DNA from: Clostridia bacterium
Lineage (GTDB): Bacteria > Bacillota > Clostridia > Oscillospirales > CAG-382
Direction: 5' to 3'
DNA length: 64,000 nucleotides
Assembly: GCA_017456765.1 (NCBI GenBank)
Contig: JAFTIR010000039.1
Location: 93,832-157,831 of the forward strand
The translations under genes and the position numbers were made by a program. Positions 17,880 to 47,660 of the stretch are shown piece after piece (position 1 is the first letter of the stretch; every line of letters starts with the position of its first letter). The notes below the pieces were generated by a model. The model did not search any database. It saw only the letters and a list, made by a program, of their open reading frames with translations, and was not told the origin of the DNA.

Positions 17880-18063
17880 AAGTTTAATACTTCCTTTCAT
17901 GTATAGCTATTTACACTAATTAACAGAATACCCCCTTTGTGTGAAAGCCGTGTGAAGTAATTGCAACATTTTACAATTTATACAAACAAACCTGTCTTAT
18001 TTTGGTGTATAATACATACTAGGATAAAATACCACAGGTATGCTGAAATGGAGGTGGGGAATA

Positions 18064-22969: not shown

Positions 22970-23007
22970 ACTTCCTTGATGCAAAACACAGGAAAGGAAA
23001 ATGTAAA

Positions 23008-24930
23008 TTGATAATACTCAGTGCCTCTGATGTCAGTCTGTCGTTCGGCACGGATGTTGTGCTTGACAGAATATCTCTCGGCATACAGGAAAATGATAAA
23101 ATCGGAATAGTGGGAGTTAACGGAGCCGGCAAGAGCCTTTTTATGAAGATTCTTGCGGGACGTGTTGCGCAGAGCGAGGGTGATGTTTTTCTCGCAAAGG
23201 GAATGAACATCGGATACCTTGAGCAGAATACGGGACTTGATTCGGATAAAGAAATGTTCGAGGAAATGTGTAATGCTTTTCCAAAGCTCCTTGAGGCGGA
23301 AAAGCGACTTTCCGAGCTCGAACAGCTTATGAATGAATCGCATGATAGCGATAAGCACATGAGCCTTGCAAAGGAGTATACAACCCTTGAGGATGCTTTT
23401 AAACGCGAGGGCGGTTACGAATTCCGAAGCAGGATTTCGAGCATGCTTACGGGGCTCGGCTTTGAGAAGGAAACACATACAAGAACAATAAACACACTTT
23501 CGGGAGGACAGAAAACAAGACTTGCCATTGCAAGACTTCTGTTGTCCGAGCCCGATATACTTATGCTCGATGAGCCTACAAACCATTTGGACATTGAAAC
23601 GGTGGAATGGCTTGAAGAATATCTGAAAAACTATAAAAAGAGCCTTGTTGTTATTTCTCATGACAGATACTTTCTCGATAAGGTAACAAAAAAGACCTTT
23701 GAAATAGAAAACCATGAGGGCAAGCTTTATAATACTTCTTATACGGAATATGTAAAACAAAAGGAAATAGACAGAAAAATTGACCAGAAGCATTATGAGC
23801 TTCAGCAAAAAGAAATCGCAAGACTTGAGGCTTTCATTGAAAACCAACGACGTTGGAACAGGGAAAGAAATATCATTGCCGCCGAAAGCCGCATGAAAGC
23901 AATTGACCGCATGGAAAAGATTGAAAAGCCTAAGAATTTACCGTCAAACATACGCTTTCGTTTCCAGATGAGCGAAAACGGCAGATGCCCGGATAAAATG
24001 CTTGAGGTTACAGGTCTGTCAAAAGGATACCCGGGAAAACAGCTGTTTGAAAATGTGTCTTTCCTGCTTCATGGCAGGGATAAGATGTTCATTCTCGGAC
24101 AGAACGGTGTCGGAAAGTCAACCATGCTCAAGATACTTTGTGGCAAAGTGGGGCAGGATTTTGGTACATTTGAGTACGCAAGCGGTCTTGCTATAGGCTA
24201 CTACGACCAGGAGCATCAGGGACTTGACGGAAACAACACTGTTATCGATGAATTGTGGGATTGCTTCCCGAATAAAACACAGACCGAGATAAGAAGTGTT
24301 CTTGGGGGCTTTCTCTTTACAAGCGAGGATGTATTTAAAAAGATAGATGTGCTGTCGGGCGGAGAAAAGGCAAGGCTTACCTTTGCAAAGCTTATGCTTG
24401 AAAAGAGCGACCTGCTCATTCTCGACGAGCCGACCAACCATCTTGATACACCAAGCAGAGAAGTGCTTGAAAACGCTCTTAGTGAATATGACGGAACAGT
24501 TCTTTGCGTATCCCATGACCGATATTTCGTCAAAAAGCTTGCCAGCCGTATTTTTGAGATGCGCGAGGATGGCACATTTGACTTTAAAGGCGGATATGAG
24601 GACTTTTGTTCATACAAAGATAAGAAAAAGGGCACAGAAAACGAGAAGACGCCGGGGCAGGGAAGTGTAACCAATTCACAAATTGATTACGAGAAATCCA
24701 AAGAATTGAAAAACCGACGCAAGAGTGCCGAGAGAAAACTTGCTGAAACCGAAAAGAAAATATCTGAAACTGAATCAAAAATCGAAGAAAACCAGAAAAA
24801 ACAGGAAGAATGTGCCTCGGATTATGAGCAGATTTCAAAACTGTTTTCTGAGCTCTCTGAACTGAATGATACCCTTGAGCGCTTATATGAAACGTGGGAT
24901 GAGCTTCAGACTATTCTTGATGAAAAATAA
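23008..24930 (+). CDS. ABC-F family ATPase (translation-factor type; no membrane domain)
   Basis: Two NBDs (GVNGAGKS / LSGGQKTRLAIARLL and GQNGVGKST / LSGGEKARLTFAKLM), an inter-domain linker and a charged coiled-coil C-terminus. TTG start after GGAAAGGAAA. Confidence 0.9.
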   Translation: MIILSASDVSLSFGTDVVLDRISLGIQENDKIGIVGVNGAGKSLFMKILAGRVAQSEGDVFLAKGMNIGYLEQNTGLDSDKEMFEEMCNAFPKLLEAEKRLSELEQLMNESHDSDKHMSLAKEYTTLEDAFKREGGYEFRSRISSMLTGLGFEKETHTRTINTLSGGQKTRLAIARLLLSEPDILMLDEPTNHLDIETVEWLEEYLKNYKKSLVVISHDRYFLDKVTKKTFEIENHEGKLYNTSYTEYVKQKEIDRKIDQKHYELQQKEIARLEAFIENQRRWNRERNIIAAESRMKAIDRMEKIEKPKNLPSNIRFRFQMSENGRCPDKMLEVTGLSKGYPGKQLFENVSFLLHGRDKMFILGQNGVGKSTMLKILCGKVGQDFGTFEYASGLAIGYYDQEHQGLDGNNTVIDELWDCFPNKTQTEIRSVLGGFLFTSEDVFKKIDVLSGGEKARLTFAKLMLEKSDLLILDEPTNHLDTPSREVLENALSEYDGTVLCVSHDRYFVKKLASRIFEMREDGTFDFKGGYEDFCSYKDKKKGTENEKTPGQGSVTNSQIDYEKSKELKNRRKSAERKLAETEKKISETESKIEENQKKQEECASDYEQISKLFSELSELNDTLERLYETWDELQTILDEK

Positions 24931-25389: not shown

Positions 25390-25418
25390 TTGACAAACCT
25401 TTTTTGCGTTGATATACT
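25390..25418 (+). promoter_or_regulatory. sigma-A-type promoter of the seven-gene transporter operon
   Basis: TTGACA (25390..25395), a 17-nt spacer, then TATACT (25413..25418). This leaves a leader of roughly 160 nt before the ATG at 25587. Confidence 0.55.
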
Positions 25419-25586
25419 ATAACCATGTAATTGGGTGCTTTTTGCCCTTTTTTAGTGTTGTCTGTGTGAAATCCCTGTGAGCATACGGTGATAAGTCGGC
25501 TTGCTGTGGATGAAGCATATATAATATGAAGAAAAAAGTGCGGAAAGACCTGTACCGAGCAATTCTCATCAGAGGAGGAAATAGCA

Positions 25587-28500
25587 ATGATGATTGCAAA
25601 AAACAAAAGCAGACTTGTTGTACTTTTACTTGTGACGAGTATGCTTCTCCAGCTTTTTGGTTCGGTCGTGATGTTTGCAGCTCCTGTTTCACAACAAAAG
25701 CTTGAAAACTCAACTACCGCACACTCGCTGGATGCTATGGCAGAGCTCATGGTTTCCACTACATACAGTGAATACCTTGCGCTTAATGATGAAATCCCCG
25801 ATGCCACTGAAAATCTTATGATTTTGGCGACTGACTACTACATCCCCGAGATTGTAGATGAGGAAACAGCCGAAAAAGTCAAGGATTATGCAAATGTATC
25901 TGTTGTTACAGATGAGGAAGCAGGGGAAGTTATTTATACACCCGGTTCGGGCAAGGTTTCCTTTAAGGTAGATGTTCCCGAAACAGCGATGTATACAATC
26001 AAGATAAAGTATCGTCCCCTTGTTGGAAGCTGGGATGACACTCGTACTGACGATGACAGCCACGGCTCCAATATCGAACGTATTCTTCTTATTGATGATA
26101 TAGTTCCTTATAAGGAAGCTCGTACTCTTAATTTCTCCCGTTTTTGGGCAGATAACTACGAGAAGAATTTCAAGGATAAGGGCGTTTTCGGCAAGGACGG
26201 CAGATATAATTTCAGACTTGATGTAAACAACAATGAAATGCGTCCTACAAAGGCCGAGGCTCCCGAGTGGGTTGAAACTTATATCACCGACTCTGAAACC
26301 TTCTACGATGAACCTTTGAAGTTCATGCTTGAAAAGGGCGAACGCGTTATCACGTTTGAGGCGGCTTGTGAGCCTATGGCTATTGCATGGCTTGAAGTCG
26401 GATACGCTGAGGAGATTCTTTCCTATAAAGACTATCTCAAGATGTACGCTGACAAAAAGGCACCTAAGAATGCTGAAGCAATAATGATTCACGCTGAAAC
26501 ACCCTATCAGACAAGTGAGCAGGTTATCTATGCGATGAATGACAGAACCAGCGGTATTACATATCCTCAGGATCCTGCGGCTTCTCTTCTTAACACAATC
26601 GGCGGTAACGGCGGTGACAAGTGGAAGAGCCCCGGACAGTGGATAAAGTACAAGATTACAGTTAAAGAATCCGGCTGGTATGATATTGTTCCCAGATTCA
26701 AGCAGACTATAAACCAGGGTCTTTTCTCATCCCGTTCTTTGAAGATTGACGGTGAGTATCCTTTCCTTGAAGCGAAGAACATTCAGTTTAAGTATGGCGA
26801 TGACTGGCAGGTTCAGAGACTTGGTGACGGTAGTCAGGAATTCAAGTTCTACCTCACAGAAGGTGAACACACTCTTGAATTCAAGGCTGTTCTCGGTGAT
26901 ATGGCGGACGTTCTTGGTGAAATTGAAAGTATCCAGACAACGCTTAACGACTACTACAGACAGATCCTTATGATCACCGGTTCCGAACCTGATGATTATA
27001 CGGACTATGAATTTTCCAAGCTCATTCCCAGTGTAATCACCGGTATGAAGCAGGAAAAGAAAAACCTTGACAAAGTTTCCAAAGAATTGGAAAAGAAGAT
27101 TGGTACAAAGGGTGAAAACACAGTAATCCTTGACAGAATTTCTTTCCTTCTTGACGAAATGAGTAAGGATGAAAATAAAATAGCGGCAAACCTCGGTAAC
27201 CTCAAGAGTTACATCGGTTCTCTCGGTACATGGCTTCTCAGCACAAAATCACAGCCTCTCCAGCTTGACTATATTCTCGTTCAGCCGGCAGGAAGTGAAC
27301 TTCCCAAGGCTAATGCCAACTTCTTTGAATCTATGGGACACGAGTTCAAGTCATTCATTATGTCTTTCTTTACAGACTATAACTCTATAGGTTCTGCAAG
27401 AAAGATTGAAGCGGACGACCCCAATGCGGTTGAAGTTTGGATTACAACAGGCCGTGACCAGGCTACAATCATGAGACAGATGGTTGATGATTCTTTCAAT
27501 AACGAAAACATTGCTGTCAACCTCAAGCTCATCGCGGCAGGTACGCTTCTTCCTGCGACACTTGCCGGTGTTGGTCCTGACGTTTCAATGGACGGTGACC
27601 CTAACGGTTATGGTATCAGAAATGCGGTTATCCCGCTTAACTATTTCCAGGATGAAACCGTTGCCAAGATCAATGAGCGTATAACTCTACCTAATAAGAA
27701 TAAGGTACTCACATATGATGAAGTAAAGAAAACATACTTCAGAGATAACGATGAGCTTTTTGTTCCTCTTACAATTCTTGACCCGGACAGAGTTGAGTAC
27801 GAAAAAGACGGTAAGACATACAAGGTAGTCGACGGTGTCGAAAGAAACGGTAGTGTTTCCTACGGTCTTCCCTATACTATAGACTTCCCGATGCTCTTCT
27901 ACAGAAAAGATATTTTTGTAGACCTCGGACTTGAAGTTCCCGAAACATGGGATGACGTTGAGGCGATCATCAGAGCGCTTTCCGAAAACCAGATGGAAAT
28001 GGGCTTTTCACAGGCAATGACTCAGATTTATATGTACCAGTCAGGTGTTGAATGGTTTGAGTCGGCGGAAAACTATCTTGATTATTATGAAAATCCTGAA
28101 GAAATTACTCGTGACAGCAGAGAGTATCTGAGAACTGTAGGTATTGCATCAAACCTTGACTCCAACGGTGCACTTGATGCATTCCAGAGAATGACAGAAT
28201 GGTTCACACTTTACGGAGAACCTGTTTCGTTCGACTTTGCAAACAGATTCAGAACAGGTGAAATGCCTATTGCTATTGCGGCTTATTCAACATATAATCA
28301 GCTTAAGGTGTTTGCTCCGGAAATCGCAGGTCTCTGGGAATTCGTACAGCTTCCCGGTGTTAAGAGAGTTGATGATGAAGGTAACGAATATATCGACCAT
28401 TCAACCCCCGGTACACCTACTGCGGTTATGATGATGAAGGATGCGGCTGATGATATCGGAAGCGGACAGGATGTTACCGATTCCAAGAAGGCGCAGAACG

Positions 28501-28883
28501 CATGGGCATATCTCCAGTGGTGGGTATCCAAGGATACACAGGAAAGATTCGGTCAGGAGCAGGTAGCCCTCATGGGTACAGCTGCTAAGTATAATACAGC
28601 AAACGTTGATGCTCTTCTCGGTCAGTCCTGGACAGCACAGGAAAAGAAGAACCTCGAGCAGCAGTTTGCATCACTCAAGGGAACTCCGATGTCCCCCGGT
28701 AACTACATTGTTGCAAGATATACAAACTTCGCATTCTATAATGTAATAAATGACGGTGAAGTTCCGGCGGAAGCATTGCGTGGCTATGTTGATGATATTG
28801 ACCACGAGCTTTCGAGAAAGAGAGCAGAGTACGGCTTCCTTACCAAGGAAGAATACTTTGAAGAACTCGGGATAGAGAGATAA
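25587..28883 (+). CDS. secreted 1098-aa chimeric extracellular solute-binding protein with a long N-terminal beta-sandwich/CBM-like and helical extension
   Basis: Signal peptide KSRLVVLLLVTSMLLQLFGSVVMFAAP. Two CBM-like segments (AMYTIKIKYRP and SGWYDIVPRFKQ). The C-terminal ~450 aa has family-1 SBP features (VEVWITTGRDQ, LAGVGPDV, FPMLFYRKDIFVDLGLEVPETWDDV). AGGAGG SD. Confidence 0.8.
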   Translation: MMIAKNKSRLVVLLLVTSMLLQLFGSVVMFAAPVSQQKLENSTTAHSLDAMAELMVSTTYSEYLALNDEIPDATENLMILATDYYIPEIVDEETAEKVKDYANVSVVTDEEAGEVIYTPGSGKVSFKVDVPETAMYTIKIKYRPLVGSWDDTRTDDDSHGSNIERILLIDDIVPYKEARTLNFSRFWADNYEKNFKDKGVFGKDGRYNFRLDVNNNEMRPTKAEAPEWVETYITDSETFYDEPLKFMLEKGERVITFEAACEPMAIAWLEVGYAEEILSYKDYLKMYADKKAPKNAEAIMIHAETPYQTSEQVIYAMNDRTSGITYPQDPAASLLNTIGGNGGDKWKSPGQWIKYKITVKESGWYDIVPRFKQTINQGLFSSRSLKIDGEYPFLEAKNIQFKYGDDWQVQRLGDGSQEFKFYLTEGEHTLEFKAVLGDMADVLGEIESIQTTLNDYYRQILMITGSEPDDYTDYEFSKLIPSVITGMKQEKKNLDKVSKELEKKIGTKGENTVILDRISFLLDEMSKDENKIAANLGNLKSYIGSLGTWLLSTKSQPLQLDYILVQPAGSELPKANANFFESMGHEFKSFIMSFFTDYNSIGSARKIEADDPNAVEVWITTGRDQATIMRQMVDDSFNNENIAVNLKLIAAGTLLPATLAGVGPDVSMDGDPNGYGIRNAVIPLNYFQDETVAKINERITLPNKNKVLTYDEVKKTYFRDNDELFVPLTILDPDRVEYEKDGKTYKVVDGVERNGSVSYGLPYTIDFPMLFYRKDIFVDLGLEVPETWDDVEAIIRALSENQMEMGFSQAMTQIYMYQSGVEWFESAENYLDYYENPEEITRDSREYLRTVGIASNLDSNGALDAFQRMTEWFTLYGEPVSFDFANRFRTGEMPIAIAAYSTYNQLKVFAPEIAGLWEFVQLPGVKRVDDEGNEYIDHSTPGTPTAVMMMKDAADDIGSGQDVTDSKKAQNAWAYLQWWVSKDTQERFGQEQVALMGTAAKYNTANVDALLGQSWTAQEKKNLEQQFASLKGTPMSPGNYIVARYTNFAFYNVINDGEVPAEALRGYVDDIDHELSRKRAEYGFLTKEEYFEELGIER

Positions 28884-28916
28884 TCCCAGCAAAGAAATTA
28901 TTAAGGAGTGAAATAA

Positions 28917-29873
28917 ATGTCAGAAAAAGCTGTAAAGAAGCCCCAGGGCGCACCGAAGCTTAGAAAAGACATGACCAAATGGGAATGGACTCTCCGTGAA
29001 ATGAAAGTAAATAAAGTGGGTTACTTCATGGTAGCTCCCTACTATATAGTATTTATGCTTTTCACAATCGTTCCCGTATTCGTGTCGCTTTTCCTTAGCC
29101 TCACACAGTTTAATATGCTCGAAGCACCTATTTTCGTAGGTGTAGATAACTACATAAGACTTCTTCTTGATGATGACACGTTCCTCTTGGCTGTTGAAAA
29201 TACTTTGGTATTTGCAACAATGACAGGTCCCGTATCATACCTCTTGAGCCTTATGTTCGCATGGTTTATCAACGAACTTACCCCCAGAATCCGTGCGGTT
29301 GTAACACTTATATTCTATGCCCCCAGTATTTCGGGTCAGGTATACCTCATTTGGCAGACTCTGTTCTCCTCTGACCAGTACGGTTGGGTAAACGGTACTT
29401 TGATGAAGCTCGGCATTATCAATAGTCCGATTCTTTGGTTCCAGGATACCAATTATATTATGACACTTGTAATCGTGGTTGCTCTTTGGACATCCCTTGG
29501 TACATCGTTCCTTTCCTTCATCGCCGGCTTCAAGGTAGTTGATAAGTCACTCTACGAAGCAGCCAGCGTTGACGGCGTAAGAAACAGATGGCAGGAGCTC
29601 TGGTATGTAACACTTCCTGTTATGAAGAACCAGATGATGTTCGGTGCTATCATGGCTATTACATCTTCATTCGGTTTCGGTGCAATCGTAACAGCTCTCT
29701 GTGGATTCCCGTCCGTTGACTACTGCGCTCACACTATCATGCATCACCTTGATGACTATGGTGGACAGCGTTGGGAATTAGGTTATGCATCTGCTATTGC
29801 GACAATTCTGTTTGCAGTAATGATTGGTTCTAACCTGCTTGTAAATAAATTATTGTCGAAGGTAGGTAAATGA
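28917..29873 (+). CDS. carbohydrate ABC transporter permease (MalF-like), pair 1
   Basis: Six TM segments and the EAA loop LYEAASVDGVRNRWQELWYVTLPVMK. Confidence 0.88.
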   Translation: MSEKAVKKPQGAPKLRKDMTKWEWTLREMKVNKVGYFMVAPYYIVFMLFTIVPVFVSLFLSLTQFNMLEAPIFVGVDNYIRLLLDDDTFLLAVENTLVFATMTGPVSYLLSLMFAWFINELTPRIRAVVTLIFYAPSISGQVYLIWQTLFSSDQYGWVNGTLMKLGIINSPILWFQDTNYIMTLVIVVALWTSLGTSFLSFIAGFKVVDKSLYEAASVDGVRNRWQELWYVTLPVMKNQMMFGAIMAITSSFGFGAIVTALCGFPSVDYCAHTIMHHLDDYGGQRWELGYASAIATILFAVMIGSNLLVNKLLSKVGK

Positions 29874-30742
29874 TGATGAAACTTCCAAAAATCAAAAGAC
29901 GTTCATTTAACCGTTCCGTCGGCGGTGACGTGGGAATTAACGTAATGCTCATCGTTTTCGGTGCATTCATGTTCCTCCCCATGGTTTATGCAGTATCACA
30001 GTCACTTAAGCCTCTTGATGAACTCTGGATGTTCCCTCCGAGATTCCTTGTTATAAATCCTACTCTCAAGAATTTCGGTGAACTTTTCCGACTCATGAGT
30101 GAATCCTGGGTTCCTTTCTCAAGATATATCTTTAACACAGCACTTGTTTCCGTAGGCGGTACATTCGGACATCTGTTCCTTGCTTCTATGGCGGCATATG
30201 CTATGACAAAAATCAAATTCCCCGGACGTAAGGGAATGTTCAAACTCGTTTACTACTCCCTCATGTTCCACTCTACAGTAACAGGCGTTTCAAACTTTAT
30301 TATAATGTCTGCACTTGGTTGGATTGATACATATTGGTCACTGATTATTCCCGCATTTGGTTATACCCTTGGTTTCTACCTAATGCGTCAGTTTATGGAG
30401 TCCACAGTACCCGATTCAGTTCTTGAATCTGCAAGACTTGACGGTGCCAAGGAACTTACAATTTACTGGAAGATAGTAATGCCGATGGTTAAGCCTGCAT
30501 GGCTCACACTTATCGTTTACTCTTTCCAGGGACTTTGGAATAGCGGTACTTCAATTTATATCTATTCCGAACAGCTCAAAACATTTAACTACGCAATCCA
30601 GCAGATTCTTGCCGGTGGTATTACACGAAGCGGTGCTGCAGCAGCGTCTACAGTTATCATGATGATTGTACCTGTAACAGTATTCGTTATCACACAGAGT
30701 AATATTATTGAAACAATGGCAAGTTCCGGTATGAAAGACTAA
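29870..30742 (+). CDS. carbohydrate ABC transporter permease (MalG-like), pair 1
   Basis: EAA loop VLESARLDGAKELTIYWKIVMPMVKP. It overlaps the previous gene by 4 nt. Confidence 0.88.
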   Translation: MMMKLPKIKRRSFNRSVGGDVGINVMLIVFGAFMFLPMVYAVSQSLKPLDELWMFPPRFLVINPTLKNFGELFRLMSESWVPFSRYIFNTALVSVGGTFGHLFLASMAAYAMTKIKFPGRKGMFKLVYYSLMFHSTVTGVSNFIIMSALGWIDTYWSLIIPAFGYTLGFYLMRQFMESTVPDSVLESARLDGAKELTIYWKIVMPMVKPAWLTLIVYSFQGLWNSGTSIYIYSEQLKTFNYAIQQILAGGITRSGAAAASTVIMMIVPVTVFVITQSNIIETMASSGMKD

Positions 30743-30756
30743 GGAGGAGACAACAA

Positions 30757-33036
30757 ATGAAAAATATAAAACGTATAGTTCTCCTTGCCCTTGTCTTTCT
30801 GATGGTGCTTGGAGCAATGCCCGTAGGTGCAATTATTCCTTATTCTACATATACATATGATATCGATGGTAATTACGTCGAATCACCCCATGCATATGTT
30901 CCTTATGAAGTAATTACATCTGCAACACTCGGTATTGGTGATAATCCCATTACAGACCCGCAGGACTTCTGTACCGGTAGAATTTCAGCGATAGATGAAC
31001 ACGCTCAGAGATATTTCTACTGGGATGGCAGAATTTATATTTCTGATGCAAATTCTGCTGCAGAGAACCCCAGAGTTGTAATTGCTGAGTACAGCTTTGA
31101 AGAATCAGGCTTCAGATATGTGGCTGAAATTACAGAGTTTGTAAATGAATGGGGTATTCCCGATAAAATTACTTCTCCTCGTGGTCTCTATGCCATTGAC
31201 AATCAGCTTTATGTCTGTGATATCGACTCTGCAAGAATCCTCGTTTTTGCAACAGCTGACGTTGAAATCGACGGCGTTCAGTATCAGATGGGTGATTTCA
31301 TCAGAACAATTGCCGAACCTGAAAGTGAAGTAATCAGTGATAACCACGTATACAGACCTCTTGCAGTTGCTGTAAGTTCATCAGGTTACATTTATGTTGT
31401 CGGTGAATCTACTCACCAGGGTGTTATTTCAATAAACAGTGAGGGTGAGTTTGCCGGATTTATCGGTACACAGTCTCAGTCCCTTAGCTTTTTTGATATG
31501 CTTTGGAGAAAGCTCCAGACAGAAGAGCAGAGAAATAAGTCTGTAAAGAACGTATCCACATCTTTCAATAATATCAATATCAATGAAAAGGGCTTCGTTT
31601 ACGCGACAACTCTTTCCATAAATCCCGATGATATTCTTAGTGCTGTCGCTTCAAAATCAATCACAAGCGATGCGTCACCTATAAAGATGCTCAACCCTAA
31701 CGGTCAGGACGTAATGAAAAGATCCGGATTTTTCCCGCCGGTAGGTGAAGTTACATTCCAGACACAGAAAACGGCTGATTACGCTACATACGGTCCTTCT
31801 CAGATTTATGACGTAGGTCTTGGTCCCGAAGGTACATGGTCTATCATAGACTCCGGAACAGAAGGAAGACAGAAGATTTTCACATATGATGAAGACGGAA
31901 ACCTCCTCTTCGCTTTTGGTGATAAGGGTTCTCAGCTCGGAAATGTCTCTCTTGCAAAGGCAATTGACTATGCTTATGGTGATGCAGACGGCAATGATTC
32001 CATGAACTACCTTATGGTTCTTGATGAAACAAACGATGCCATCACAGTTTACAGAAGAACAGAATATGGCGATGTACTTATTCAGGCTCTCCAGAATCAG
32101 AGAGACAGAAAATTCGATAAGTCTGAGGAAGACTGGAGAGAAATTCTTCAGAGAAACTCAAACTTCGACATGTCTTATATAGGCATTGGTAAGAGCCTTG
32201 CAAGACAGGAAAAATATCCAGAAGCTATGGAAATGTTCAAGGCTGCATATGATACGGAAAACTATTCCGAAGCATGGCAGCAGGTAAGAAAAGCATGGGT
32301 TGAAGATTATGTAATCGTAATTCCCATAGTAATTGTAGCATTCTTCATTATTGTTTCTAAAATCTTCAAGTATGCAAACAAGGTTAATGAGGCAGGTCTT
32401 GCCCTCAGAAAGAAGCGTACACTTAAAGAAGAATTTATGTACGGTTTCCATGTAATGTTCCATCCGTTCGACGGATATTGGGATATTAAGCATGAATACC
32501 GAGCATCTACAAAGGGTGCAACACTTATTCTTGCGATTACAGTATTGTCCTTTATATATTATTCAATCGGTCAGTCGTATATAATCAAGCCTACACCTGA
32601 TGATACAGGCGTGCTTATGATGTTTGTATCAGTACTCCTTCCCATACTTCTTTGGGTAATTGCAAACTGGTGTCTCACAACACTGTTTGACGGAGAAGGA
32701 AGCATCAGAGATATTTATATTGCGACCTGTTATGCACTTTTCCCGCTTCCTCCGTTCCTTATTCTTACAACACTTTTGTCGAATATTGTAACAGTTGATG
32801 AAGCAGGTCTTCTCTCACTCGCACTTGGCGTAGCACTTTTCTGGTGCGGCTTCCTGCTCTTCTTTGGTATGCAGGTAATTCACGACTATTCACTTTTCAA
32901 GAACGTTCTTACAACACTTGCTTCAATAGTAGGTATGGCATTTATTATGTTTATCGGCGTGCTCTTCTCGAGCCTTCTCGGTAAAATAGTAACATTTGTT
33001 GTTAATATCGTTGTTGAACTTTCATACAGAGTATAG
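30757..33036 (+). CDS. secreted NHL/beta-propeller-like domain fused to a C-terminal YIP1-like polytopic membrane domain (759 aa)
   Basis: Signal peptide IVLLALVFLMVLGAMPVGA. Repeated propeller-blade-like segments (PRGLYAIDNQLYVCDIDSARILVF, RPLAVAVSSSGYIYVVGES, NEKGFVYATT, DEDGNLLFAFGDKGSQLG, LMVLDETNDAITVY), a TPR-like helix pair, then about 6 TM segments. Confidence 0.75.
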   Translation: MKNIKRIVLLALVFLMVLGAMPVGAIIPYSTYTYDIDGNYVESPHAYVPYEVITSATLGIGDNPITDPQDFCTGRISAIDEHAQRYFYWDGRIYISDANSAAENPRVVIAEYSFEESGFRYVAEITEFVNEWGIPDKITSPRGLYAIDNQLYVCDIDSARILVFATADVEIDGVQYQMGDFIRTIAEPESEVISDNHVYRPLAVAVSSSGYIYVVGESTHQGVISINSEGEFAGFIGTQSQSLSFFDMLWRKLQTEEQRNKSVKNVSTSFNNININEKGFVYATTLSINPDDILSAVASKSITSDASPIKMLNPNGQDVMKRSGFFPPVGEVTFQTQKTADYATYGPSQIYDVGLGPEGTWSIIDSGTEGRQKIFTYDEDGNLLFAFGDKGSQLGNVSLAKAIDYAYGDADGNDSMNYLMVLDETNDAITVYRRTEYGDVLIQALQNQRDRKFDKSEEDWREILQRNSNFDMSYIGIGKSLARQEKYPEAMEMFKAAYDTENYSEAWQQVRKAWVEDYVIVIPIVIVAFFIIVSKIFKYANKVNEAGLALRKKRTLKEEFMYGFHVMFHPFDGYWDIKHEYRASTKGATLILAITVLSFIYYSIGQSYIIKPTPDDTGVLMMFVSVLLPILLWVIANWCLTTLFDGEGSIRDIYIATCYALFPLPPFLILTTLLSNIVTVDEAGLLSLALGVALFWCGFLLFFGMQVIHDYSLFKNVLTTLASIVGMAFIMFIGVLFSSLLGKIVTFVVNIVVELSYRV

Positions 33037-33051
33037 GAAAGGAGAAAGAAA

Positions 33052-35811
33052 ATGAAACACATGAAATTAGCAAGATACATTCTTTCTGTTCTTATGCTCG
33101 TTGCAACGCTTTGCATTTGTTGCGTGGCAGCTGATGAGGAATATACACTCTCAAAGGACTATATAACCTCAACGGGTGATAACGGCGTTATTTACAACAG
33201 CCCCGAAGAAAAGCTCGCAACAATGGGTGTTAAGGACGAAGAAACAGGCAAAAGTAAGCCTAACTTTGAAAATGATGAATATGAAATCTGGGCGCATCCT
33301 GAAACCGGTGAAGTTGGTATCAAGGTGAAGGCAACAGGTCAGATTATTCTCACAAACCCATATAATGTCAGCCAGTCAACCGCGGCTAAAGAGGTAAAAC
33401 AGAAGCTTCTTTCGCAAATAATCATTCAGTATAAGGATAGCTCCGGTGCTATAGTGGAATTCAATTCCTATAAGGACGCTGCCCTTAACGGTAAGGTTGT
33501 TTCGAGAGAAAACGTTGGCCAGATTCAGGTTAAAAACACAAGAAACGGTATCAGAGTGGACTATACACTCGGTAAGGAACAGGCAAAATATGTTGTTCCC
33601 AAGCAGATAGAAAAAGAAAGCTTTGAAAAGAATCTTATCGAGGTTTGGGAAGATAAAACCACAAGAGACTTTGCTCAGTTTATAGCATATTATGACCTTA
33701 AAGACCCCTTTGATAAGTCACTTGCTCCTGCAGTTCTTACATCTATGAAGGCGCAGTTCCCTGCAACCGAGAACTATGCAATTTATGTGCTTGACCCCGG
33801 TGTTTCCAACAGAGAACTTGAGATGCTTTCAGGCTATATCAGCAAGAATACTGAATATGATGCTACACAGATGGCGGCAGACTATGATCTTATCAATTAT
33901 ATTGATACATCTGCAGCACCTGCAATCTTCAGATTTGCAATTGAATATTCAATTGATGAGCATGGTATTATGATTTCAATGCCTGCTAACAGTATTACTT
34001 ATGATTCTTCAAGCTATACGCTTGTAAATGTAAAGCTTCTTCCTTACCTTGGTGCAGGAAGTAATAACAATACCGGATTTACATTGCTTCCTGATGGTTC
34101 AGGTACTATAACAAGATTTGAAGATATTAAAGGTAAGGCTTTCACCCTCACAGGTAAAGTTTACGGTAAGGATTATTCCTATCATTCGATTTCCGGATAC
34201 AACCAGGAAACAATGAGACTACCTGTAATCGGTATTCTTGAAAACAGACCTGCGCCTGTTGTAGAAACAGCAGGAGAGGCAGAAGATGTTGCCGCAGTAC
34301 CTGCAGAAGAAACAGACAATCTTGTAGGACAGGGCTTTGTTGCATACTTTGTTGATGGTGACTCTCTCACAGAGCTTAGCTCTGACCATGGCGGTAGTGT
34401 TCATAACTATAGCTCGGTTTATGCTACTTTCTATCCGAAAGCAACAGATACATATTCACTTACAGGTATTTCTTCCGACGGTGATGCAACTTGGTCTGTT
34501 TCAGGCGACAGAAAGTATGTGGGCGACTATTCAATGAGAGTTTTCCCTGTATACGGTGAAGATGCCGGCTATACGAATATGGCACAGATTGTAAGAAAAT
34601 ATCTTGAGGATACAAAGGTTCTTACAAGAATGGATGCCAAGAAAGATAAGTCAAAAGATGTAGCGATTTATATTGAAAACTTCGGTACAATCAAGACAGA
34701 TGAAAAGATTCTTGGTTTCCCCACAAAGGTACAGACACCTCTTACAACTTTTGAACAGACGCAGGAAATGATTGAGGATCTCAAGTCAAGAGGCGTAAAT
34801 AATATCAATGTAAGACTTACAGGTTGGTATAACGGAGGTCTCGAGCATACTGCTCCTTCATCTTTGAGCGTGCCCGGCAAGATCGGTGGTATGAATGGTC
34901 TTAAGGACCTTGCAGCCTATGCGAAAAAAGCCGGTGTTGGTCTCTATCCCGACCTCGACTATACATACGTTGAACATTTCAAGTGGTTTGACGGAATTTC
35001 GACTAAGGATGATACCGTAAAAACACTTGATGGCAGAGGTGCTGTTCATAGAGTTTATAATGCTCTCTACCAGGGATTTGAAGCGGACGACAAGGCAATC
35101 ATCAGCCCCGGTTCAATTTCTGATTTGTATGAGAAGATTAGTAAGAAATACGAAGCAATCGGTGCAAGTGGTATTTCGGTTGCGTCAATCGGCTATGATT
35201 TAAATTCAGACCATAATGATGAATATGTTCTTAACAGAGACGAATCTCAGGAGCTTGTAGAAGACTTCCTCAATACTCTCAAGAAAAAGAACGGAAGTGT
35301 TATGGTTGACGGTGGTAATGCTTATTCTTTGAAGTATGCGGACCATATTCTCAGCATGCCCCTTGAAAGTAGTATGAACATTAACACAAGCCAGTCAGTT
35401 CCTTTCATGGGAATGGTACTTCATGGTTATGTTGAATTCGCAGGTACACCTATCAACCTTGACGGTGACTTTGATTACAGTGTTCTCAGAGCCATTGAAA
35501 ATGGTGCAAACCTTTACTTTGTGGTATCTAAGGATAATACATCCGAACTCAAATCATTCCCCGAATTCAGCAAGTACTATGCTATCAGCTATGACAACTG
35601 GGTAAATGATATTGAAGCGACATACGCTAAGTTCAATGATGCAATGAAGAAGGTTAAATACTCTCTTATTGATGAGCATGAGTATATCGGAACAAGACTC
35701 GTAAGGGTAAAATATGATAACGGAACAGAGTTTATCCTTAACTATAATACCCACGAAGTTACAACAGAAGACGGAACAACTGTTGAAGCCATGAGCTTCG
35801 CAGTGAGATAA
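33052..35811 (+). CDS. secreted 919-aa protein of unknown function (DUF5696-like by recollection; possible TIM-barrel glycosidase-like C-terminal half)
   Basis: Signal/anchor ILSVLMLVATLCICCVAA. The C-terminal half contains barrel-like strands (NINVRLTGWYNGGLEH and VGLYPDLDYTYV). Confidence 0.7.
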   Translation: MKHMKLARYILSVLMLVATLCICCVAADEEYTLSKDYITSTGDNGVIYNSPEEKLATMGVKDEETGKSKPNFENDEYEIWAHPETGEVGIKVKATGQIILTNPYNVSQSTAAKEVKQKLLSQIIIQYKDSSGAIVEFNSYKDAALNGKVVSRENVGQIQVKNTRNGIRVDYTLGKEQAKYVVPKQIEKESFEKNLIEVWEDKTTRDFAQFIAYYDLKDPFDKSLAPAVLTSMKAQFPATENYAIYVLDPGVSNRELEMLSGYISKNTEYDATQMAADYDLINYIDTSAAPAIFRFAIEYSIDEHGIMISMPANSITYDSSSYTLVNVKLLPYLGAGSNNNTGFTLLPDGSGTITRFEDIKGKAFTLTGKVYGKDYSYHSISGYNQETMRLPVIGILENRPAPVVETAGEAEDVAAVPAEETDNLVGQGFVAYFVDGDSLTELSSDHGGSVHNYSSVYATFYPKATDTYSLTGISSDGDATWSVSGDRKYVGDYSMRVFPVYGEDAGYTNMAQIVRKYLEDTKVLTRMDAKKDKSKDVAIYIENFGTIKTDEKILGFPTKVQTPLTTFEQTQEMIEDLKSRGVNNINVRLTGWYNGGLEHTAPSSLSVPGKIGGMNGLKDLAAYAKKAGVGLYPDLDYTYVEHFKWFDGISTKDDTVKTLDGRGAVHRVYNALYQGFEADDKAIISPGSISDLYEKISKKYEAIGASGISVASIGYDLNSDHNDEYVLNRDESQELVEDFLNTLKKKNGSVMVDGGNAYSLKYADHILSMPLESSMNINTSQSVPFMGMVLHGYVEFAGTPINLDGDFDYSVLRAIENGANLYFVVSKDNTSELKSFPEFSKYYAISYDNWVNDIEATYAKFNDAMKKVKYSLIDEHEYIGTRLVRVKYDNGTEFILNYNTHEVTTEDGTTVEAMSFAVR

Positions 35812-35829
35812 GAAAGGGGTGCAGCTTTT

Positions 35830-36792
35830 ATGAATAACACAGCAAGTGTAGAAGTAGTAAAAAAGAAAAAGCCGGCATCACTTGATGCTAAAAAGGCAAG
35901 AGCTGGTTGGTTTTTTGTACTGCCTTTCTTAATTGGTTTTATAATTCTTTATATTCCGATGCTTATAAGCTCGGTTGAGTTTTCATTCAGTAAGATTCAT
36001 GTTATTCCTAAAGCAGGTTATGAACTTGAATTTATAGGAATTGAAAACTATCGCGAAGCACTGTTCTCTGATGCAAACTTTGTAAGAACACTTACAGAGA
36101 GTATTCAGCAGCTTGTACTTGACGTGCCCGCTATTGTAATATTCTCACTCTTTATGGCAATTGTTCTTAATCAGAAAATGCTTGGTCGTGCAGTGTTCAG
36201 AGCAATTTTCTTCATCCCTGTTATTCTTGCAACAGGTCTTATAGACCAGATTGACCAGAGTAACGCGGCGATGAACTACATGAATAGCGGCGGTATTGAT
36301 ACCGGTGCCGGAGGAGCAGAATCCGAAGGTCTTATCAATACAATGGATATTACCAATCTTCTCGGTAATATGGTAATTGGTACAGAACTTGTTGAATATG
36401 TTGTAGGTATTGTTAATAATATCTTTAACATCGTTAACCGTTCCGGTGTACAGATGCTTATCTTCCTTTCAGGTCTTCAGTCAATTTCTCCTGCAATCTA
36501 TGAATCATGTAAGATGGACGGTGCAACAGGTTGGGAAACCTTCTGGAAGATTACATTCCCCATGATAAGCCCTATGATTCTTGTAAATACAATTTACACG
36601 GTAATCGACTCATTTACATCGGAATCGAATGTTGTAATGACATACATTAACAAGGTATATAACGAAGGAACACTCAGACCTCGTGAACTTAGTAGTGCCA
36701 TGAGCTGGATTTACTTCTTAATTGTACTTGTGCTTATTGGTCTTGTATCGCTCCTTGTATCGGCATTCGTATTCTATCAAAGAAGAGACTAA
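35830..36792 (+). CDS. ABC transporter permease (MalF-like), pair 2
   Basis: EAA loop IYESCKMDGATGWETFWKITFPMISP and six TM segments. Confidence 0.85.
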   Translation: MNNTASVEVVKKKKPASLDAKKARAGWFFVLPFLIGFIILYIPMLISSVEFSFSKIHVIPKAGYELEFIGIENYREALFSDANFVRTLTESIQQLVLDVPAIVIFSLFMAIVLNQKMLGRAVFRAIFFIPVILATGLIDQIDQSNAAMNYMNSGGIDTGAGGAESEGLINTMDITNLLGNMVIGTELVEYVVGIVNNIFNIVNRSGVQMLIFLSGLQSISPAIYESCKMDGATGWETFWKITFPMISPMILVNTIYTVIDSFTSESNVVMTYINKVYNEGTLRPRELSSAMSWIYFLIVLVLIGLVSLLVSAFVFYQRRD

Positions 36793-36810
36793 AGAAGGGA
36801 GGATAAAAAA

Positions 36811-37833
36811 ATGAACAATAACACAACAGATGCTCAGCTCAGAAAAGTTACGAGAAAAGAAATGAAGATTGATTTTGAAGGAAAGCTTTCCTTTAAAGAG
36901 AGACTTCGTCTTAAGTATTTCTCATGGAAATTTGTTGGCGAATTAGTGTATAAGATTTTCAGATTTGTTCTTCTTGTCGGTATTTCGTACATCATTATTT
37001 ATCCTTTCCTTACAAAGATCCTCAACTCATTTATGACAACTGAGGACCTTGTAGATGTAACGGTAAAGCTTATTCCCCGTCATCCCAATCTCAATCAGTG
37101 GAAGTTTATCATTATGGAAAATGATTATTTCCTTGCACTTTTCAATACGGCAAGAATTTCACTTGTATGTGCCTTCTTTCAGACACTTATTTGTGCGATA
37201 ATCGGTTACGGTTTTGCTAAGTTCAAGTTCAAGGGAAGAAATATACTTTTCCTTTGCGTAATCATTACAATGCTTATTCCTCATGATACCCTTCTTCTTG
37301 CTATGTTCATGAAGTTCAGATACTTTGATATATTCGGTATTTTCAGTCTTTTCGGACTTGATATAAACCTAATCAATACCGAAATTCCTCTGTATCTGCT
37401 CTCTCTTACAGGACTTGCGTTTAAGAACGGTCTTTATATCTTTATTTTCAGACAGTTCTATCGCGGCGTACCTGATGAACTTGAAGAAGCGGCTTATATT
37501 GACGGTACAGGCGTATTCAAGACATTCTTCCAGATTATTCTTCCCCTGTCAGTTCCTATGATGACAACAGTATTCCTGTTCTCGTTCTCATGGCAGTGGA
37601 CGGATACATTCTATACAGCGTCCCCCTTCTTTACATCCAATGACATCCATTTGCTTCCCAACATTGTTGAGGTTCCTCAGAGCCTTAAGATGGACTTTGC
37701 GGCAAGCGGTCTTTGGAACTCTATCATTACCAACACTTGTGGTATGCTGGTTATCTTGCCCCTCTTCATTATCTTCCTCTTCGCACAGAGATCCTTTGTT
37801 GAAGGTATTGAACGTTCGGGTATTGTTGGTTAA
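36811..37833 (+). CDS. ABC transporter permease (MalG-like), pair 2
   Basis: EAA loop LEEAAYIDGTGVFKTFFQIILPLSVP, with an N-terminal cytoplasmic extension. Confidence 0.85.
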   Translation: MNNNTTDAQLRKVTRKEMKIDFEGKLSFKERLRLKYFSWKFVGELVYKIFRFVLLVGISYIIIYPFLTKILNSFMTTEDLVDVTVKLIPRHPNLNQWKFIIMENDYFLALFNTARISLVCAFFQTLICAIIGYGFAKFKFKGRNILFLCVIITMLIPHDTLLLAMFMKFRYFDIFGIFSLFGLDINLINTEIPLYLLSLTGLAFKNGLYIFIFRQFYRGVPDELEEAAYIDGTGVFKTFFQIILPLSVPMMTTVFLFSFSWQWTDTFYTASPFFTSNDIHLLPNIVEVPQSLKMDFAASGLWNSIITNTCGMLVILPLFIIFLFAQRSFVEGIERSGIVG

Positions 37834-37843
37834 AATTACAAGG

Positions 37844-37872
37844 AAAAGCGTGTGCTTTGCACACGCTTTTTT
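37844..37872 (+). terminator. intrinsic terminator closing the seven-gene operon
   Basis: AAAAGCGTGTG / CACACGCTTTT stem followed by a T-run. Confidence 0.8.
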
Positions 37873-37907: not shown

Positions 37908-37936
37908 TTGACAAAGGAACAAATGTTTGTTATAAT
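37908..37936 (+). promoter_or_regulatory. lexA promoter with an embedded Cheo-type LexA (SOS) box
   Basis: TTGACA (37908..37913), a 17-nt spacer, then TATAAT (37931..37936). The spacer contains GAACAAATGTTT (37917..37928), close to the Gram-positive GAAC-N4-GTTC consensus. Confidence 0.75.
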
Positions 37937-37967
37937 GTATACATAAAAGGTAGAAAGGGCGGTAAAA

Positions 37968-38576
37968 ATGAAAGACCTTAAACCAAAGGAACTCAGAGTA
38001 TATGAATTTATAAAGGGAAGAATTATTGAAATTGGCTATGCTCCGTCTGTAAGAGAAATATGTGCAGATCTTAATATTAAGTCTACTTCTACAGCACAAA
38101 TGTATATTGATAGACTTATATCGAAGGGCTATCTTGAAAGAGAAAACGGAAAGAGCAGAACCCTTAAACTTACCGCAGGTGACGGTTCTAAGGTTCACAG
38201 CTATAAAGTTCCGATACTCGGTCAGGTTGCGGCAGGACTTCCTATATTGACTGCGGAAAATTTTGACGGATATATCAACTTTGCAACGGAGAAGAAGTAT
38301 GATGAACATCAGCTTTTTGCACTTACTGTTAAGGGCGAAAGTATGCGAGAGGTGGGCATCATGAACGGTGATATAGTTGTTGTGGAGAAATGCGATTATG
38401 CCGATAATGGAAAGATTGTTGTTGCAATGATTGGCGATGAGGCAACGGTTAAACGCTTCTATAAAGAAAACGGAAAATACAGACTTCAGCCGGAAAATCA
38501 TGATATGCAGCCTATAATTGCGGATGAAGTATCGGTACTTGGTCATGTTGTGGCTGATATAAGGTTTTACAAATAA
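37968..38576 (+). CDS. lexA: LexA repressor
   Basis: Winged-helix N-terminus (VREICADLNIKSTSTAQMYIDRLISKGYLE), VAAG cleavage site, GESM catalytic Ser and VKRF catalytic Lys. Confidence 0.93.
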   Translation: MKDLKPKELRVYEFIKGRIIEIGYAPSVREICADLNIKSTSTAQMYIDRLISKGYLERENGKSRTLKLTAGDGSKVHSYKVPILGQVAAGLPILTAENFDGYINFATEKKYDEHQLFALTVKGESMREVGIMNGDIVVVEKCDYADNGKIVVAMIGDEATVKRFYKENGKYRLQPENHDMQPIIADEVSVLGHVVADIRFYK

Positions 38577-45536: not shown

Positions 45537-46514
45537 ATGAAAATAGGAAATGTAGAAATAAAAAACGGTGTATTTCTTGCACCTATGGCAGGGGTTACCG
45601 ACAGGGCTTTTCGCTATATGTGTAAAAAATACGGTGCAGGTGGCATGACCACCGAAATGGTGTCGGCAAAGGCTATCTGTTACGGAGATAAAAAGACGGC
45701 ACGCCTTGCGTATATTGCGCTCGAGGAAAGACCCTGCGGTCTTCAGCTTTTCGGAAGCGAGCCTGATATTATGGCAAGGGCGGCGGCGAGCGTTTTTGAC
45801 TTGTTTTCCCCTGAATTTATTGATGTAAATATGGGTTGTCCTGCACCTAAAATCGTAAATAACGGCGAGGGAAGTTCACTTATGAAAAATCCACGCCTTT
45901 GCTATGAAATAGTCAAGAGCATGAAAACTGCTCTTGACGGCAGATGCCCCCTGACAGTTAAAATAAGACGCGGATTTGACAAAGACAGTATCAATGCTGT
46001 CGAGGTTGCAAAAATGTGTGAAGAAGCGGGTGCGGATGCAATCTTTGTCCACGCAAGGACGAGAGAGCAGATGTATATGCCTCCGGTTGAGTATTCAACT
46101 ATTGCCGACGTAAAGAATGCAGTAAAAATCCCCGTTATAGGAAACGGGGACATAATGTGCGGACTTGATGCGGTGAATGTCATGAAAGAAACCGGATGTG
46201 ACGGCGTTATGATTGGACGTGCGTCTCAGGGAAATCCTTTTGTGTTTGATGAAATCAACCATTATCTTGAGGGGAAAGCATATACTGCACCTACATCTGA
46301 TGAGAAAAGGAAATGCGTAAAAGAACACATTTCACTTCTTGTCGAGGATAAGGGCGAATATGTCGGAGTGAGAGAGGCGAGAAAGCATGTTGCGTGGTAT
46401 ATAAAGGGACTTCCCGGTTCTGCCTCAATGAGAAACCGGGTGAATCTCTGTGAAAGCACAAAGGAAATGATGTCGCTTATTGATGAAGCCTTTTCTACCG
46501 GAGAATCATTTTAA
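45537..46514 (+). CDS. dusB: tRNA dihydrouridine synthase
   Basis: LAPMAGVTD, DVNMGCP and GADAIFVHARTR motifs. Confidence 0.9.
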   Translation: MKIGNVEIKNGVFLAPMAGVTDRAFRYMCKKYGAGGMTTEMVSAKAICYGDKKTARLAYIALEERPCGLQLFGSEPDIMARAAASVFDLFSPEFIDVNMGCPAPKIVNNGEGSSLMKNPRLCYEIVKSMKTALDGRCPLTVKIRRGFDKDSINAVEVAKMCEEAGADAIFVHARTREQMYMPPVEYSTIADVKNAVKIPVIGNGDIMCGLDAVNVMKETGCDGVMIGRASQGNPFVFDEINHYLEGKAYTAPTSDEKRKCVKEHISLLVEDKGEYVGVREARKHVAWYIKGLPGSASMRNRVNLCESTKEMMSLIDEAFSTGESF

Positions 46515-47601: not shown

Positions 47602-47660
47602 GGCTAAAACTCCTTTCAATCTCTTTACTTTATCCTATGCCAAAACTCTTTGCGGTGTGC

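Follow-up and report, generated by a model that had tools for sequence, protein, structure and literature searches.

A seven-gene cassette encoding two MalF/MalG-type permease pairs, a giant solute-binding protein and Yip1- and DUF5696-type surface proteins is conserved in gene order across Clostridia and Bacilli

The stretch under study, hereafter the window, comprises 64,000 nucleotides (nt) from a Clostridia bacterium (Bacillota; Clostridia; Oscillospirales; CAG-382; assembly GCA_017456765.1, contig JAFTIR010000039.1, positions 93,832 to 157,831). At 25587-37833 it carries seven open reading frames (ORFs), all on the + strand and designated here g1 to g7, which encode a giant solute-binding protein (SBP; g1), two pairs of ATP-binding cassette (ABC) importer permeases (g2/g3 and g6/g7) and, placed between these pairs, an NHL-propeller/Yip1 protein (g4) and an exported DUF5696 protein (g5). 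The genes follow one another at distances of 33, -4, 14, 15, 18 and 18 nt, the negative value standing for an overlap. We found that they are preceded by a sigma-70-type promoter (25390..25418, + strand; TTGACA and TATACT separated by 17 nt, with an extended -10 TG), which matches 11 of the 12 consensus positions and is the top-scoring site of the 656-nt gap between the upstream ABC-F gene and g1. Since promoter-like matches are overall near chance level (38 observed vs. 37.4 expected), this assignment relies on position and quality, not on enrichment. Downstream of g7 lies an intrinsic terminator (37844..37872, + strand; hairpin at 37844-37870) with a 12-bp stem containing 6 GC pairs, which is the strongest combination of hairpin and T-run in the region; as it is flanked by an A-tract on one side and a T-tract on the other, it should be able to act in both directions. 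The ORF table and site scans thus bear out the operon outlined in the initial annotation of this DNA, i.e., co-directional and tightly spaced genes with a 4-nt overlap, one promoter and one terminator. The terminator scan additionally revealed a short GC stem-loop followed by a T-run (GGGTGCTTTTTGCCC; 25433..25456, + strand), which lies approximately 15 nt past the -10 box, within the 168-nt leader, and is possibly a leader hairpin or attenuator. Rfam matches above noise were found neither in the leader nor anywhere else in the operon, and no cre box was detected in the promoter or leader, matches elsewhere being near chance level. The GC content of the operon (0.38-0.44) is similar to that of the remainder of the window, and a recent horizontal insertion is therefore unsupported.

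The first gene, g1 (25587..28883, + strand), encodes a protein of 1098 amino acids (aa). Its AlphaFold2 (AF2) model, with a predicted local distance difference test (pLDDT) score of 85, consists of an N-terminal hydrophobic helix, two beta-sandwiches (approximately aa 75-272 and 299-435), a helical bundle (437-554) and a MalE-type SBP domain (559-1098). The best Foldseek matches of the model are the sugar SBPs 3uor and 5ysb, with TM-scores normalized to the target (TMt) of 0.74-0.76, while the g1 family profile, when compared with PDB sequences, recovered Lin1841, an SBP that binds sophoro-oligosaccharides, at 1e-11. The Pfam scan gave no match on g1 itself; among 33 homologues, SBP_bac_8 was matched in 19 and SBP_bac_1 in 16, with CBM_35 in 3 and Golvesin_C in 6. 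Family profile, fold and homologues together support the earlier description of g1 as a chimeric SBP, and residues 559-1098 represent the MalE-like extracytoplasmic binding protein that a CUT1 importer (TC 3.A.1.1) requires. As the N-terminus of g1 lacks a lipobox cysteine, the protein is likely tethered in the membrane through its uncleaved N-terminal helix. One such N-terminal hydrophobic segment is found in each of the three large proteins (g1, g4, and g5), in line with the signal or anchor sequences originally noted for them.

Two MalF/MalG-fold subunits bearing EAA loops are likewise required in CUT1 importers, and the cassette provides them twice over. Pair 1 is composed of the MalF/UgpA-type permease g2 (28917..29873, + strand, 318 aa, EAA at aa 214) and the MalG/UgpE-type permease g3 (29870..30742, + strand, 290 aa, EAA-like ESARLDG at aa 186), the coding sequences of which overlap by 4 nt. 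Pair 2 combines the MalF/UgpA-type g6 (35830..36792, + strand, 320 aa, EAA-like ESCKMDG at aa 225) with the MalG/UgpE-type g7 (36811..37833, + strand, 340 aa, EAA at aa 226), which possesses an N-terminal extension of about 45 aa. All four proteins exceed the Pfam gathering score for BPD_transp_1, so that the EAA loops previously ascribed to each of the small proteins are corroborated by both motif search and Pfam. The identity between g6 and g2 amounts to 23.5%, and that between g7 and g3 to 22%. A recent duplication as the source of pair 2 is ruled out by this low identity (22-24%); judged from their sequences, the permeases form two anciently diverged heterodimers, each with its own EAA motifs. 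With regard to Pfam, the matches anticipated in the initial annotation were obtained for the four permeases, Yip1, DUF5696 and, weakly, NHL; only the SBP match predicted for g1 did not appear.

We searched for the cassette elsewhere in a scan of one genome per species, in which at least 567 stretches encode a g5 relative, and compared gene order in the best 80 of them. The complete g1-g7 order on one strand is present in 70 of these 80 loci; the other 10 are interrupted by contig ends only, and no locus breaks the order. The same arrangement is retained at approximately 26% g5 identity in eight distant loci, which belong to Butyrivibrio, Paenibacillus, Neobacillus, Cohnella and three uncultured bacteria. 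Every DUF5696 gene whose context was examined lies inside such a cassette, between the Yip1 gene and pair 2. In turn, flanking genes are unconserved past close relatives. Because the order stays constant from Oscillospirales and Lachnospiraceae to Paenibacillaceae/Bacillaceae, i.e., in two classes of Bacillota, and the flanks vary, we regard the seven genes as one functional unit. The absence of conserved synteny, which had been named as the observation that would speak against a joint system, is contradicted by the 70 of 70 complete loci and by the distant Lachnospiraceae and Bacilli loci, and the co-occurrence of DUF5696, YIP1, solute-binding protein and permease annotations in other Firmicutes, as originally put forward, is confirmed. 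Median identities reach 67% for g2 (across 75 species loci), 68% for g3, 62% for g6, and 54% for g7 vs. 38-46% for g1, g4, and g5, as expected for a constant membrane core combined with adaptive substrate-facing parts. It is hardly conceivable, then, that the locus represents two independent ordinary sugar importers and two unrelated surface proteins that became neighbors by chance. Each permease pair alone constitutes a complete MalF/MalG-type heterodimer, and the pairs are not recent duplicates, both of which would suit such a view; yet it is effectively refuted by the identical order and strand in the 70 complete and eight distant loci with unconserved flanks, the constant position of DUF5696 and the tight or overlapping spacing.

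Several peculiarities were encountered among the 80 loci, which derive from metagenome-assembled genomes (MAGs). The recurrent flanking genes, which could have pointed to the substrate, are housekeeping genes only as far as the visible flanks extend (approximately 2.5 kb upstream of g1 in most loci), encoding NifS-like proteins, ROK kinases, MnmA, RNase H, ribosomal proteins and VanY-like peptidases. Within the flanks of loci L007-L086, genes for VanY-like D,D-carboxypeptidases adjoin the cassette in 16 cases, and a ROK-family kinase gene is located upstream, on the opposite strand, in 11. One complete cassette (L044, JAGARL010000319.1) resides on a contig deposited as Methanocorpusculum sp., an archaeon, and this contig is most likely mis-binned. 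In-frame stops or frame breaks affect g5 in L017 (9469-10281), g2 in L037 (6065-6965) and g4 in L078 (7853-9981), which may reflect pseudogenes or assembly errors.

The eight distant cassettes differ mainly in the genes that accompany them. In Butyrivibrio fibrisolvens D1 (L087), a divergent histidine kinase/response regulator pair and a co-oriented gene for a GH43_24-like protein, closest to exo-beta-1,3-galactanases, are found upstream, and two extra SBP genes downstream. In Paenibacillus cellulosilyticus (L088) and P. mucilaginosus (L089), a MalK-type ATPase gene lies directly upstream on the same strand and no glycoside hydrolase (GH) genes are linked, while in Neobacillus kokaensis (L090) the order upstream is an extra SBP gene and then the MalK-type ATPase gene; all three encode a fused NHL-Yip1 protein. 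The cassette of N. kokaensis is followed (L090 14181-22265) by genes encoding two GFO/IDH/MocA oxidoreductases, an AP_endonuc_2 protein of the sugar isomerase type, GH2 and GH38, a set reminiscent of oxidative (3-keto) glycoside catabolism. Cohnella luojiensis (L091) carries lacI-type and extra SBP genes upstream and GH26, GH113 and GH9 genes downstream. As for the uncultured loci, L092 has a LacI regulator and an Ig-like surface protein upstream and GH30_2 and GH35 downstream, L093 has an AraC-type response regulator and an extra SBP upstream and GH95, GH10 and an esterase downstream, and L094 starts at a contig end and continues downstream with an extra SBP and a protein bearing the carbohydrate-binding module CBM65. 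Whenever a DUF5696, giant SBP or NHL protein was checked, an N-terminal signal or anchor was present; no signal sequence occurs in the neighboring GH43_24-like, GH26 and GH113 enzymes, which are hence cytoplasmic. Since these cytoplasmic GH sets differ between genomes, the cassette seems to be a reusable uptake platform with evolving specificity, in keeping with permeases that evolve slowly and surface proteins that evolve fast. The proposal that it imports one complex glycan is accordingly not supported: the cassette is not bound to a single substrate, as the associated cytoplasmic GH families vary by genome. The replicon of L088 (NZ_CP054609.1) is deposited as the 509-kb 'plasmid unnamed1'; with recG and a stage VI sporulation gene next to its cassette, this replicon resembles a chromid or part of a chromosome.

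The distant loci are also informative with regard to the motor of the transporter. Walker A and LSGGQ motifs are absent from all seven proteins, in agreement with the earlier remark that the operon encodes no nucleotide-binding domain. An Escherichia coli MalK query detected no MalK/MsmK-type ATPase in the operon or in the 64-kb window, its sole matches there being the genes for ABC-F (23008-24930) and a UvrA-like protein (20108-22969), and the same query found an ABC ATPase within 10 kb, at low identity, in just 2 of the 80 loci. Supply of the ATPase in trans is common among CUT1 sugar importers. In all three Paenibacillus and Neobacillus loci, the first gene encodes a MalK-type ATPase (ABC_tran, OB_MalK and TOBE_2 domains), one for two permease pairs; these loci therefore indicate which motor the cassette uses, with a single ATPase type serving both pairs. 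Because the Bacilli versions encode this protein, its absence from the window operon corresponds to ordinary MsmK sharing in Firmicutes. The suggestion that the ATPase is borrowed from elsewhere in the genome thus stands, and the gap in the operon is best explained by a MalK/MsmK-type protein acting in trans.

The product of g4 (30757..33036, + strand, 759 aa) is composed of a signal peptide, an NHL propeller, TPR, a transmembrane (TM) helix at 519-537 and a Yip1 domain at 564-733. Pfam recognizes Yip1 (PF04893) at 6.4e-15 (residues 564-733, model positions 1-170 of 173) and, weakly, NHL (E 4e-4), whereas among 32 orthologues Yip1 was found in all, NHL in 29 (best 7e-17) and TPR in 17. When compared with PDB sequences, the g4 family profile matched TPR proteins and NHL six-bladed propellers (1e-35 to 1e-18, in 3-6 matched stretches), including the PknD sensor, its designed Pizza derivatives and TRIM71. 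Hydropathy places the C-terminal hydrophobic segments at 587-742, and a strictly conserved cytoplasmic motif, FHPFDGYWDIK here (approximately aa 568-578) and FHPFDGxWDxK family-wide, follows the first TM helix. As far as these sequence features allow us to tell, g4 uses its Yip1 membrane domain to present the NHL propeller and TPR at the cell exterior; that the propeller binds glycan, as the initial annotation proposed, is pure inference. In five distant loci, two genes take the place of g4, one for the NHL-TPR part, which has a C-terminal TM helix of its own, and one for the Yip1 part (L087 9780-11875; L091 7916-9986; L092 7814-9984; L093 7896-9979; L094 2986-5133); the two genes overlap in all but one of these loci. 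Except for L092, the split-type loci also have a gene for an additional conventional SBP (458-536 aa) nearby, and a regulator is visible beside four of them (L087, L091, L092, and L093). The resemblance to the PknD sensor propeller and its Pizza derivatives, together with the conserved HPFDGxWDxK motif on the cytoplasmic side, might indicate that g4 is a transmembrane sensor signaling the presence of glycan to the transporter or to gene expression, and not a scaffold. We regard this as very improbable, as g4 contains no kinase, helix-turn-helix, GGDEF or other output domain, and the occurrence of propeller and Yip1 as separate proteins in five loci fits complex assembly better than single-chain signaling.

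The g5 gene (33052..35811, + strand) encodes an exported protein of 919 aa with a signal or anchor sequence, which belongs to DUF5696 (PF18952; 507 bits, E 7e-152, cut-off 25.6, model positions 14-612 of 612); no other Pfam family was matched on it at E<=0.01. The family is large, comprising 5,971 clusters at 50% identity. The AF2 model of g5 (pLDDT 87.6, predicted TM-score 0.83) includes an N-terminal domain (approximately 30-290), a beta-sandwich (293-502), a (beta/alpha)8 barrel (approximately 507-870) and a C-terminal beta-sandwich. Its closest Foldseek relatives are the GH129 enzymes ZgGH129 (E 6e-32) and NagBb (8e-24), with TMt of 0.69-0.73 (5opq, 8rzk, 5wzn), followed by GH101, GH31 and GH36. 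On the strength of this model, we are confident that g5 adopts a GH129/GH101-like glycosidase fold. The family profile, when compared with the NagBb sequence, yields a weak though significant match (E=3e-4) over 128 residues of the first barrel half. Residues kept across DUF5696 at 22-28% identity include the invariant D374 as well as D348, D720, E816, N802, N756 and H791, and the conserved E542, W592, N594, D720, N756, H791, N802 and E816 sit where the predicted barrel strands have their C-terminal ends, or beyond. Active sites of TIM-barrel glycosidases are located at these strand ends. D720, which follows barrel strand four and is conserved as Asp in 23 of the 26 sequences compared across the family, is a plausible candidate nucleophile, and catalysis by g5 is likely. 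The enzyme-like character assigned to the DUF5696 protein from the beginning thus receives support from AF2 and Foldseek, while the term depolymerase is too strong: the nearest folds, GH129 and GH101, are those of exo-acting or glycan-releasing alpha-glycosidases, and the acid/base residue was not located. With so marginal a similarity in sequence and no assignment of catalytic residues, DUF5696 cannot be placed in GH129 or GH101. Some members of the family (P0371, P0404, P0408, and P0421) are considerably longer, i.e., 1,800-2,500 aa, with approximately 900-1,500 extra residues past profile position 876, and a Pfam scan of this extra part gave no match.

Taking these observations together, we lean, with somewhat more confidence than doubt, toward the view that the operon encodes a composite CUT1-class platform for surface capture, trimming and dual import, the substrate of which is lineage-specific. 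In this scheme, g1 would capture a soluble glycan or oligosaccharide on the cell surface and pass it to pair 1, while g5, most likely a retaining enzyme of the alpha-glycosidase type, would trim or debranch the captured glycan extracellularly. A second class of products would then enter via pair 2, handed over by g5 or g4 or, in lineages having one, by the extra conventional SBP. A MalK/MsmK-type ATPase homodimer, with its gene elsewhere in the genome, would drive both permease pairs. The Yip1 domain of g4 would serve as a membrane scaffold holding the parts together, by analogy with YknW, a Yip1-family protein of Bacillus subtilis that modulates assembly of the YknXYZ ABC transporter (PMC4887032). 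Finally, cytoplasmic glycosidases would finish the imported oligosaccharides, and as these differ between lineages, the substrate specificity should be lineage-specific too. The steps of trimming, dual import and Yip1-propeller organization are all inferred.

A number of points weigh against this interpretation, the first group of which concerns g5. In a comparison of a 37-sequence profile with PDB sequences, the second half of the g5 barrel produced only chance matches to interferon-gamma and none to GH129; as this half did not align to GH129, the catalytic residues cannot be mapped. The acid/base candidates D753, D764 and E772, expected 30-45 residues past D720, all vary, and g5 could be non-catalytic or of a different chemistry. 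Besides, the GHs linked to distant cassettes act on beta-linked mannan, xylan and galactan backbones, so that an alpha-glycosidase would require the added assumption that g5 removes alpha-linked side chains. The Oscillospirales version contains no second SBP, which leaves the substrate supply of pair 2 unexplained, and is surrounded by housekeeping genes, with no regulator and no neighboring carbohydrate-active enzymes (CAZymes); such a setting fits a constitutive or envelope role as well as foraging. The association of the cassette parts in one assembly is assumed by analogy, and the literature searched holds no biochemical or expression data on any cassette member.

Part of these points may be reconciled if DUF5696 is a degenerate glycosidase fold that serves pair 2 as a glycan receptor close to the membrane, in place of an SBP and either alone or together with the NHL propeller. 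This would match the single SBP for two permease pairs in the window, the unconserved acid/base position across the DUF5696 family, the lack of a significant sequence match over the catalytic half of GH129, and the location of g5, always directly upstream of pair 2 and often with overlapping or nearly abutting coding ends. Yet D348, D374, D720, E816, N802 and H791 persist at 22-28% identity, as is typical of an active site, and several lineages add a conventional SBP beside the cassette, which could serve pair 2. We know of no type I importer that is SBP-independent or depends on a GH fold, which counts against such a receptor as well, and we consider it unlikely.

The second group of objections is related to the surroundings of the cassette in the window. 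Upstream it is flanked by recG, the UvrA-like gene and the ABC-F gene, downstream by lexA, comFC, holA, comEC and mreC, and no regulator was found within the locus or these flanks, which are housekeeping genes. The finding that a regulator is lacking thus applies to the Oscillospirales version, while other versions adjoin LacI, AraC-type response regulators or a histidine kinase/response regulator pair, and for them it fails. The flanks contain DNA-repair genes (window 18040-24930 and 37908-38576); the 3' end of recG is overlapped by 47 nt by the UvrA-like gene, and lexA carries a perfect 12/12 consensus promoter (37908-37936). As recG is also found a few genes upstream of the cassette in P. 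cellulosilyticus (L088 1-1552), the shared vicinity may be a coincidence or an old neighborhood. Elsewhere in the window, two - strand ORFs (9912-11171, 419 aa, and 46495-47619, 374 aa) gave no Pfam match, and a 567-aa ORF at 11363-13066 matched only marginally GH127 (beta-L-arabinofuranosidase).

Such a setting brings to mind a constitutive housekeeping role of the Oscillospirales cassette, in which the cell would turn over or recycle glycans of its own envelope (capsule, exopolysaccharide or secondary cell-wall polymer) instead of foraging for dietary or host glycans. The lack of a regulator, of a neighboring CAZyme and of a cre box in the leader, the strong near-consensus promoter, the composition without sign of recent transfer, and the housekeeping flanks that differ by species (nifS, mnmA, ribosomal protein genes and the above-mentioned VanY-like and ROK kinase genes) are all compatible with this role. 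On the other hand, the Lachnospiraceae and Bacilli cassettes sit in polysaccharide-utilization contexts with regulators and GH26, GH113, GH10, GH95, GH43_24, GH35 and GH2, and linked regulators were perhaps missed, as just approximately 2.5 kb upstream of g1 is visible in most MAG loci. In our judgment, an envelope function is decidedly unlikely.

The composite import platform can be extended to a more far-reaching model, in which the seven proteins and a shared MsmK-type ATPase would form one supercomplex, with a Yip1/NHL scaffold, two ABC translocators, a tethered SBP bearing carbohydrate-binding modules and a GH129-like enzyme, so that one glycan is trimmed and two product classes are imported side by side. 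We put it forward only tentatively and hold it to be rather doubtful; if it is true, Firmicutes would possess a counterpart of the Bacteroidota utilisome, DUF5696 would constitute a new glycoside hydrolase family, and a bacterial Yip1 protein would for the first time be given a role in an ABC importer. None of the papers in the literature searched names DUF5696 or PF18952, links Yip1 with sugar ABC importers or describes the cluster, which agrees with the statement in the initial annotation that no characterization was known. The carriers include gut and rumen Oscillospiraceae and Lachnospiraceae as well as soil Paenibacillaceae. If our interpretation is true, the cassette represents a new architecture of ABC sugar importers, with two translocators and obligatory surface accessories; a large DUF would acquire a function and a CAZy-type class, and bacterial Yip1 proteins would gain a role in ABC importer assembly. 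It would also account partly for glycan uptake by abundant, mostly uncultured fiber-degrading Firmicutes. The proposal is directly testable, as cultured carriers exist (B. fibrisolvens D1, P. mucilaginosus, P. cellulosilyticus, C. luojiensis, and N. kokaensis).

Among known systems, the cassette most resembles MalEFGK2 of E. coli and the MsmEFGK/RafEFG-type transporters of Firmicutes, with which it shares MalF/MalG-type EAA permeases and a MalE-type binding domain. Like CUT1 importers, it employs a MalK-type ATPase with OB/TOBE domains; the ATPase gene is part of the operon in Bacilli and missing from the window version, the usual situation where MsmK/MsmX is shared. Yet it departs from every described CUT1 member: its operon contains two permease pairs that are 22-24% identical, its SBP reaches approximately 1100 aa owing to a 560-aa N-terminal extension and uses a TM segment, not a lipobox, as its anchor, two obligatory accessory genes (NHL-Yip1 and DUF5696) are inserted between the pairs, and, where present, a single ATPase gene serves both of them. 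The g5 protein shares its three-domain fold with GH129, represented by NagBb (the alpha-N-acetylgalactosaminidase of Bifidobacterium bifidum) and ZgGH129 (the 3,6-anhydro-D-galactosidase of Zobellia), and with the GH101 endo-alpha-N-acetylgalactosaminidases. In contrast to them, it belongs to a separate Pfam family, is approximately 11-13% identical and carries an additional N-terminal domain of about 260 aa; moreover, g5 is exported and always encoded within an ABC permease operon, whereas GH129 enzymes stand alone. The YknWXYZ system offers a parallel in that the genes of an ABC transporter are accompanied by one for a Yip1-family membrane protein, presumably a part of the assembled complex. 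There, however, YknYZ is an exporter of the MacB type that has a membrane-fusion protein, and YknW has no propeller, while the cassette is a type I importer whose Yip1 carries or pairs with NHL-TPR.

In a broader sense, the logic of surface capture, processing, import and cytoplasmic finishing is common to the cassette, the polysaccharide utilization loci (PULs) of Gram-positive bacteria and the Sus-like complexes of Bacteroidota, although the latter rely on TonB-dependent SusC/D and the cassette on ABC transport. The Oscillospirales cassette differs from PULs in that no regulator or additional GH is located nearby, and of the elements that define a Gram-positive PUL (transporter, GH, and regulator) the window locus lacks the regulator. 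Distant cassettes, like PULs, have linked regulators and GH genes, and all three elements are found together in L087, L091, L092 and L093. Unlike PULs, the core of the cassette is a fixed seven-gene module that is reused with different enzyme sets.

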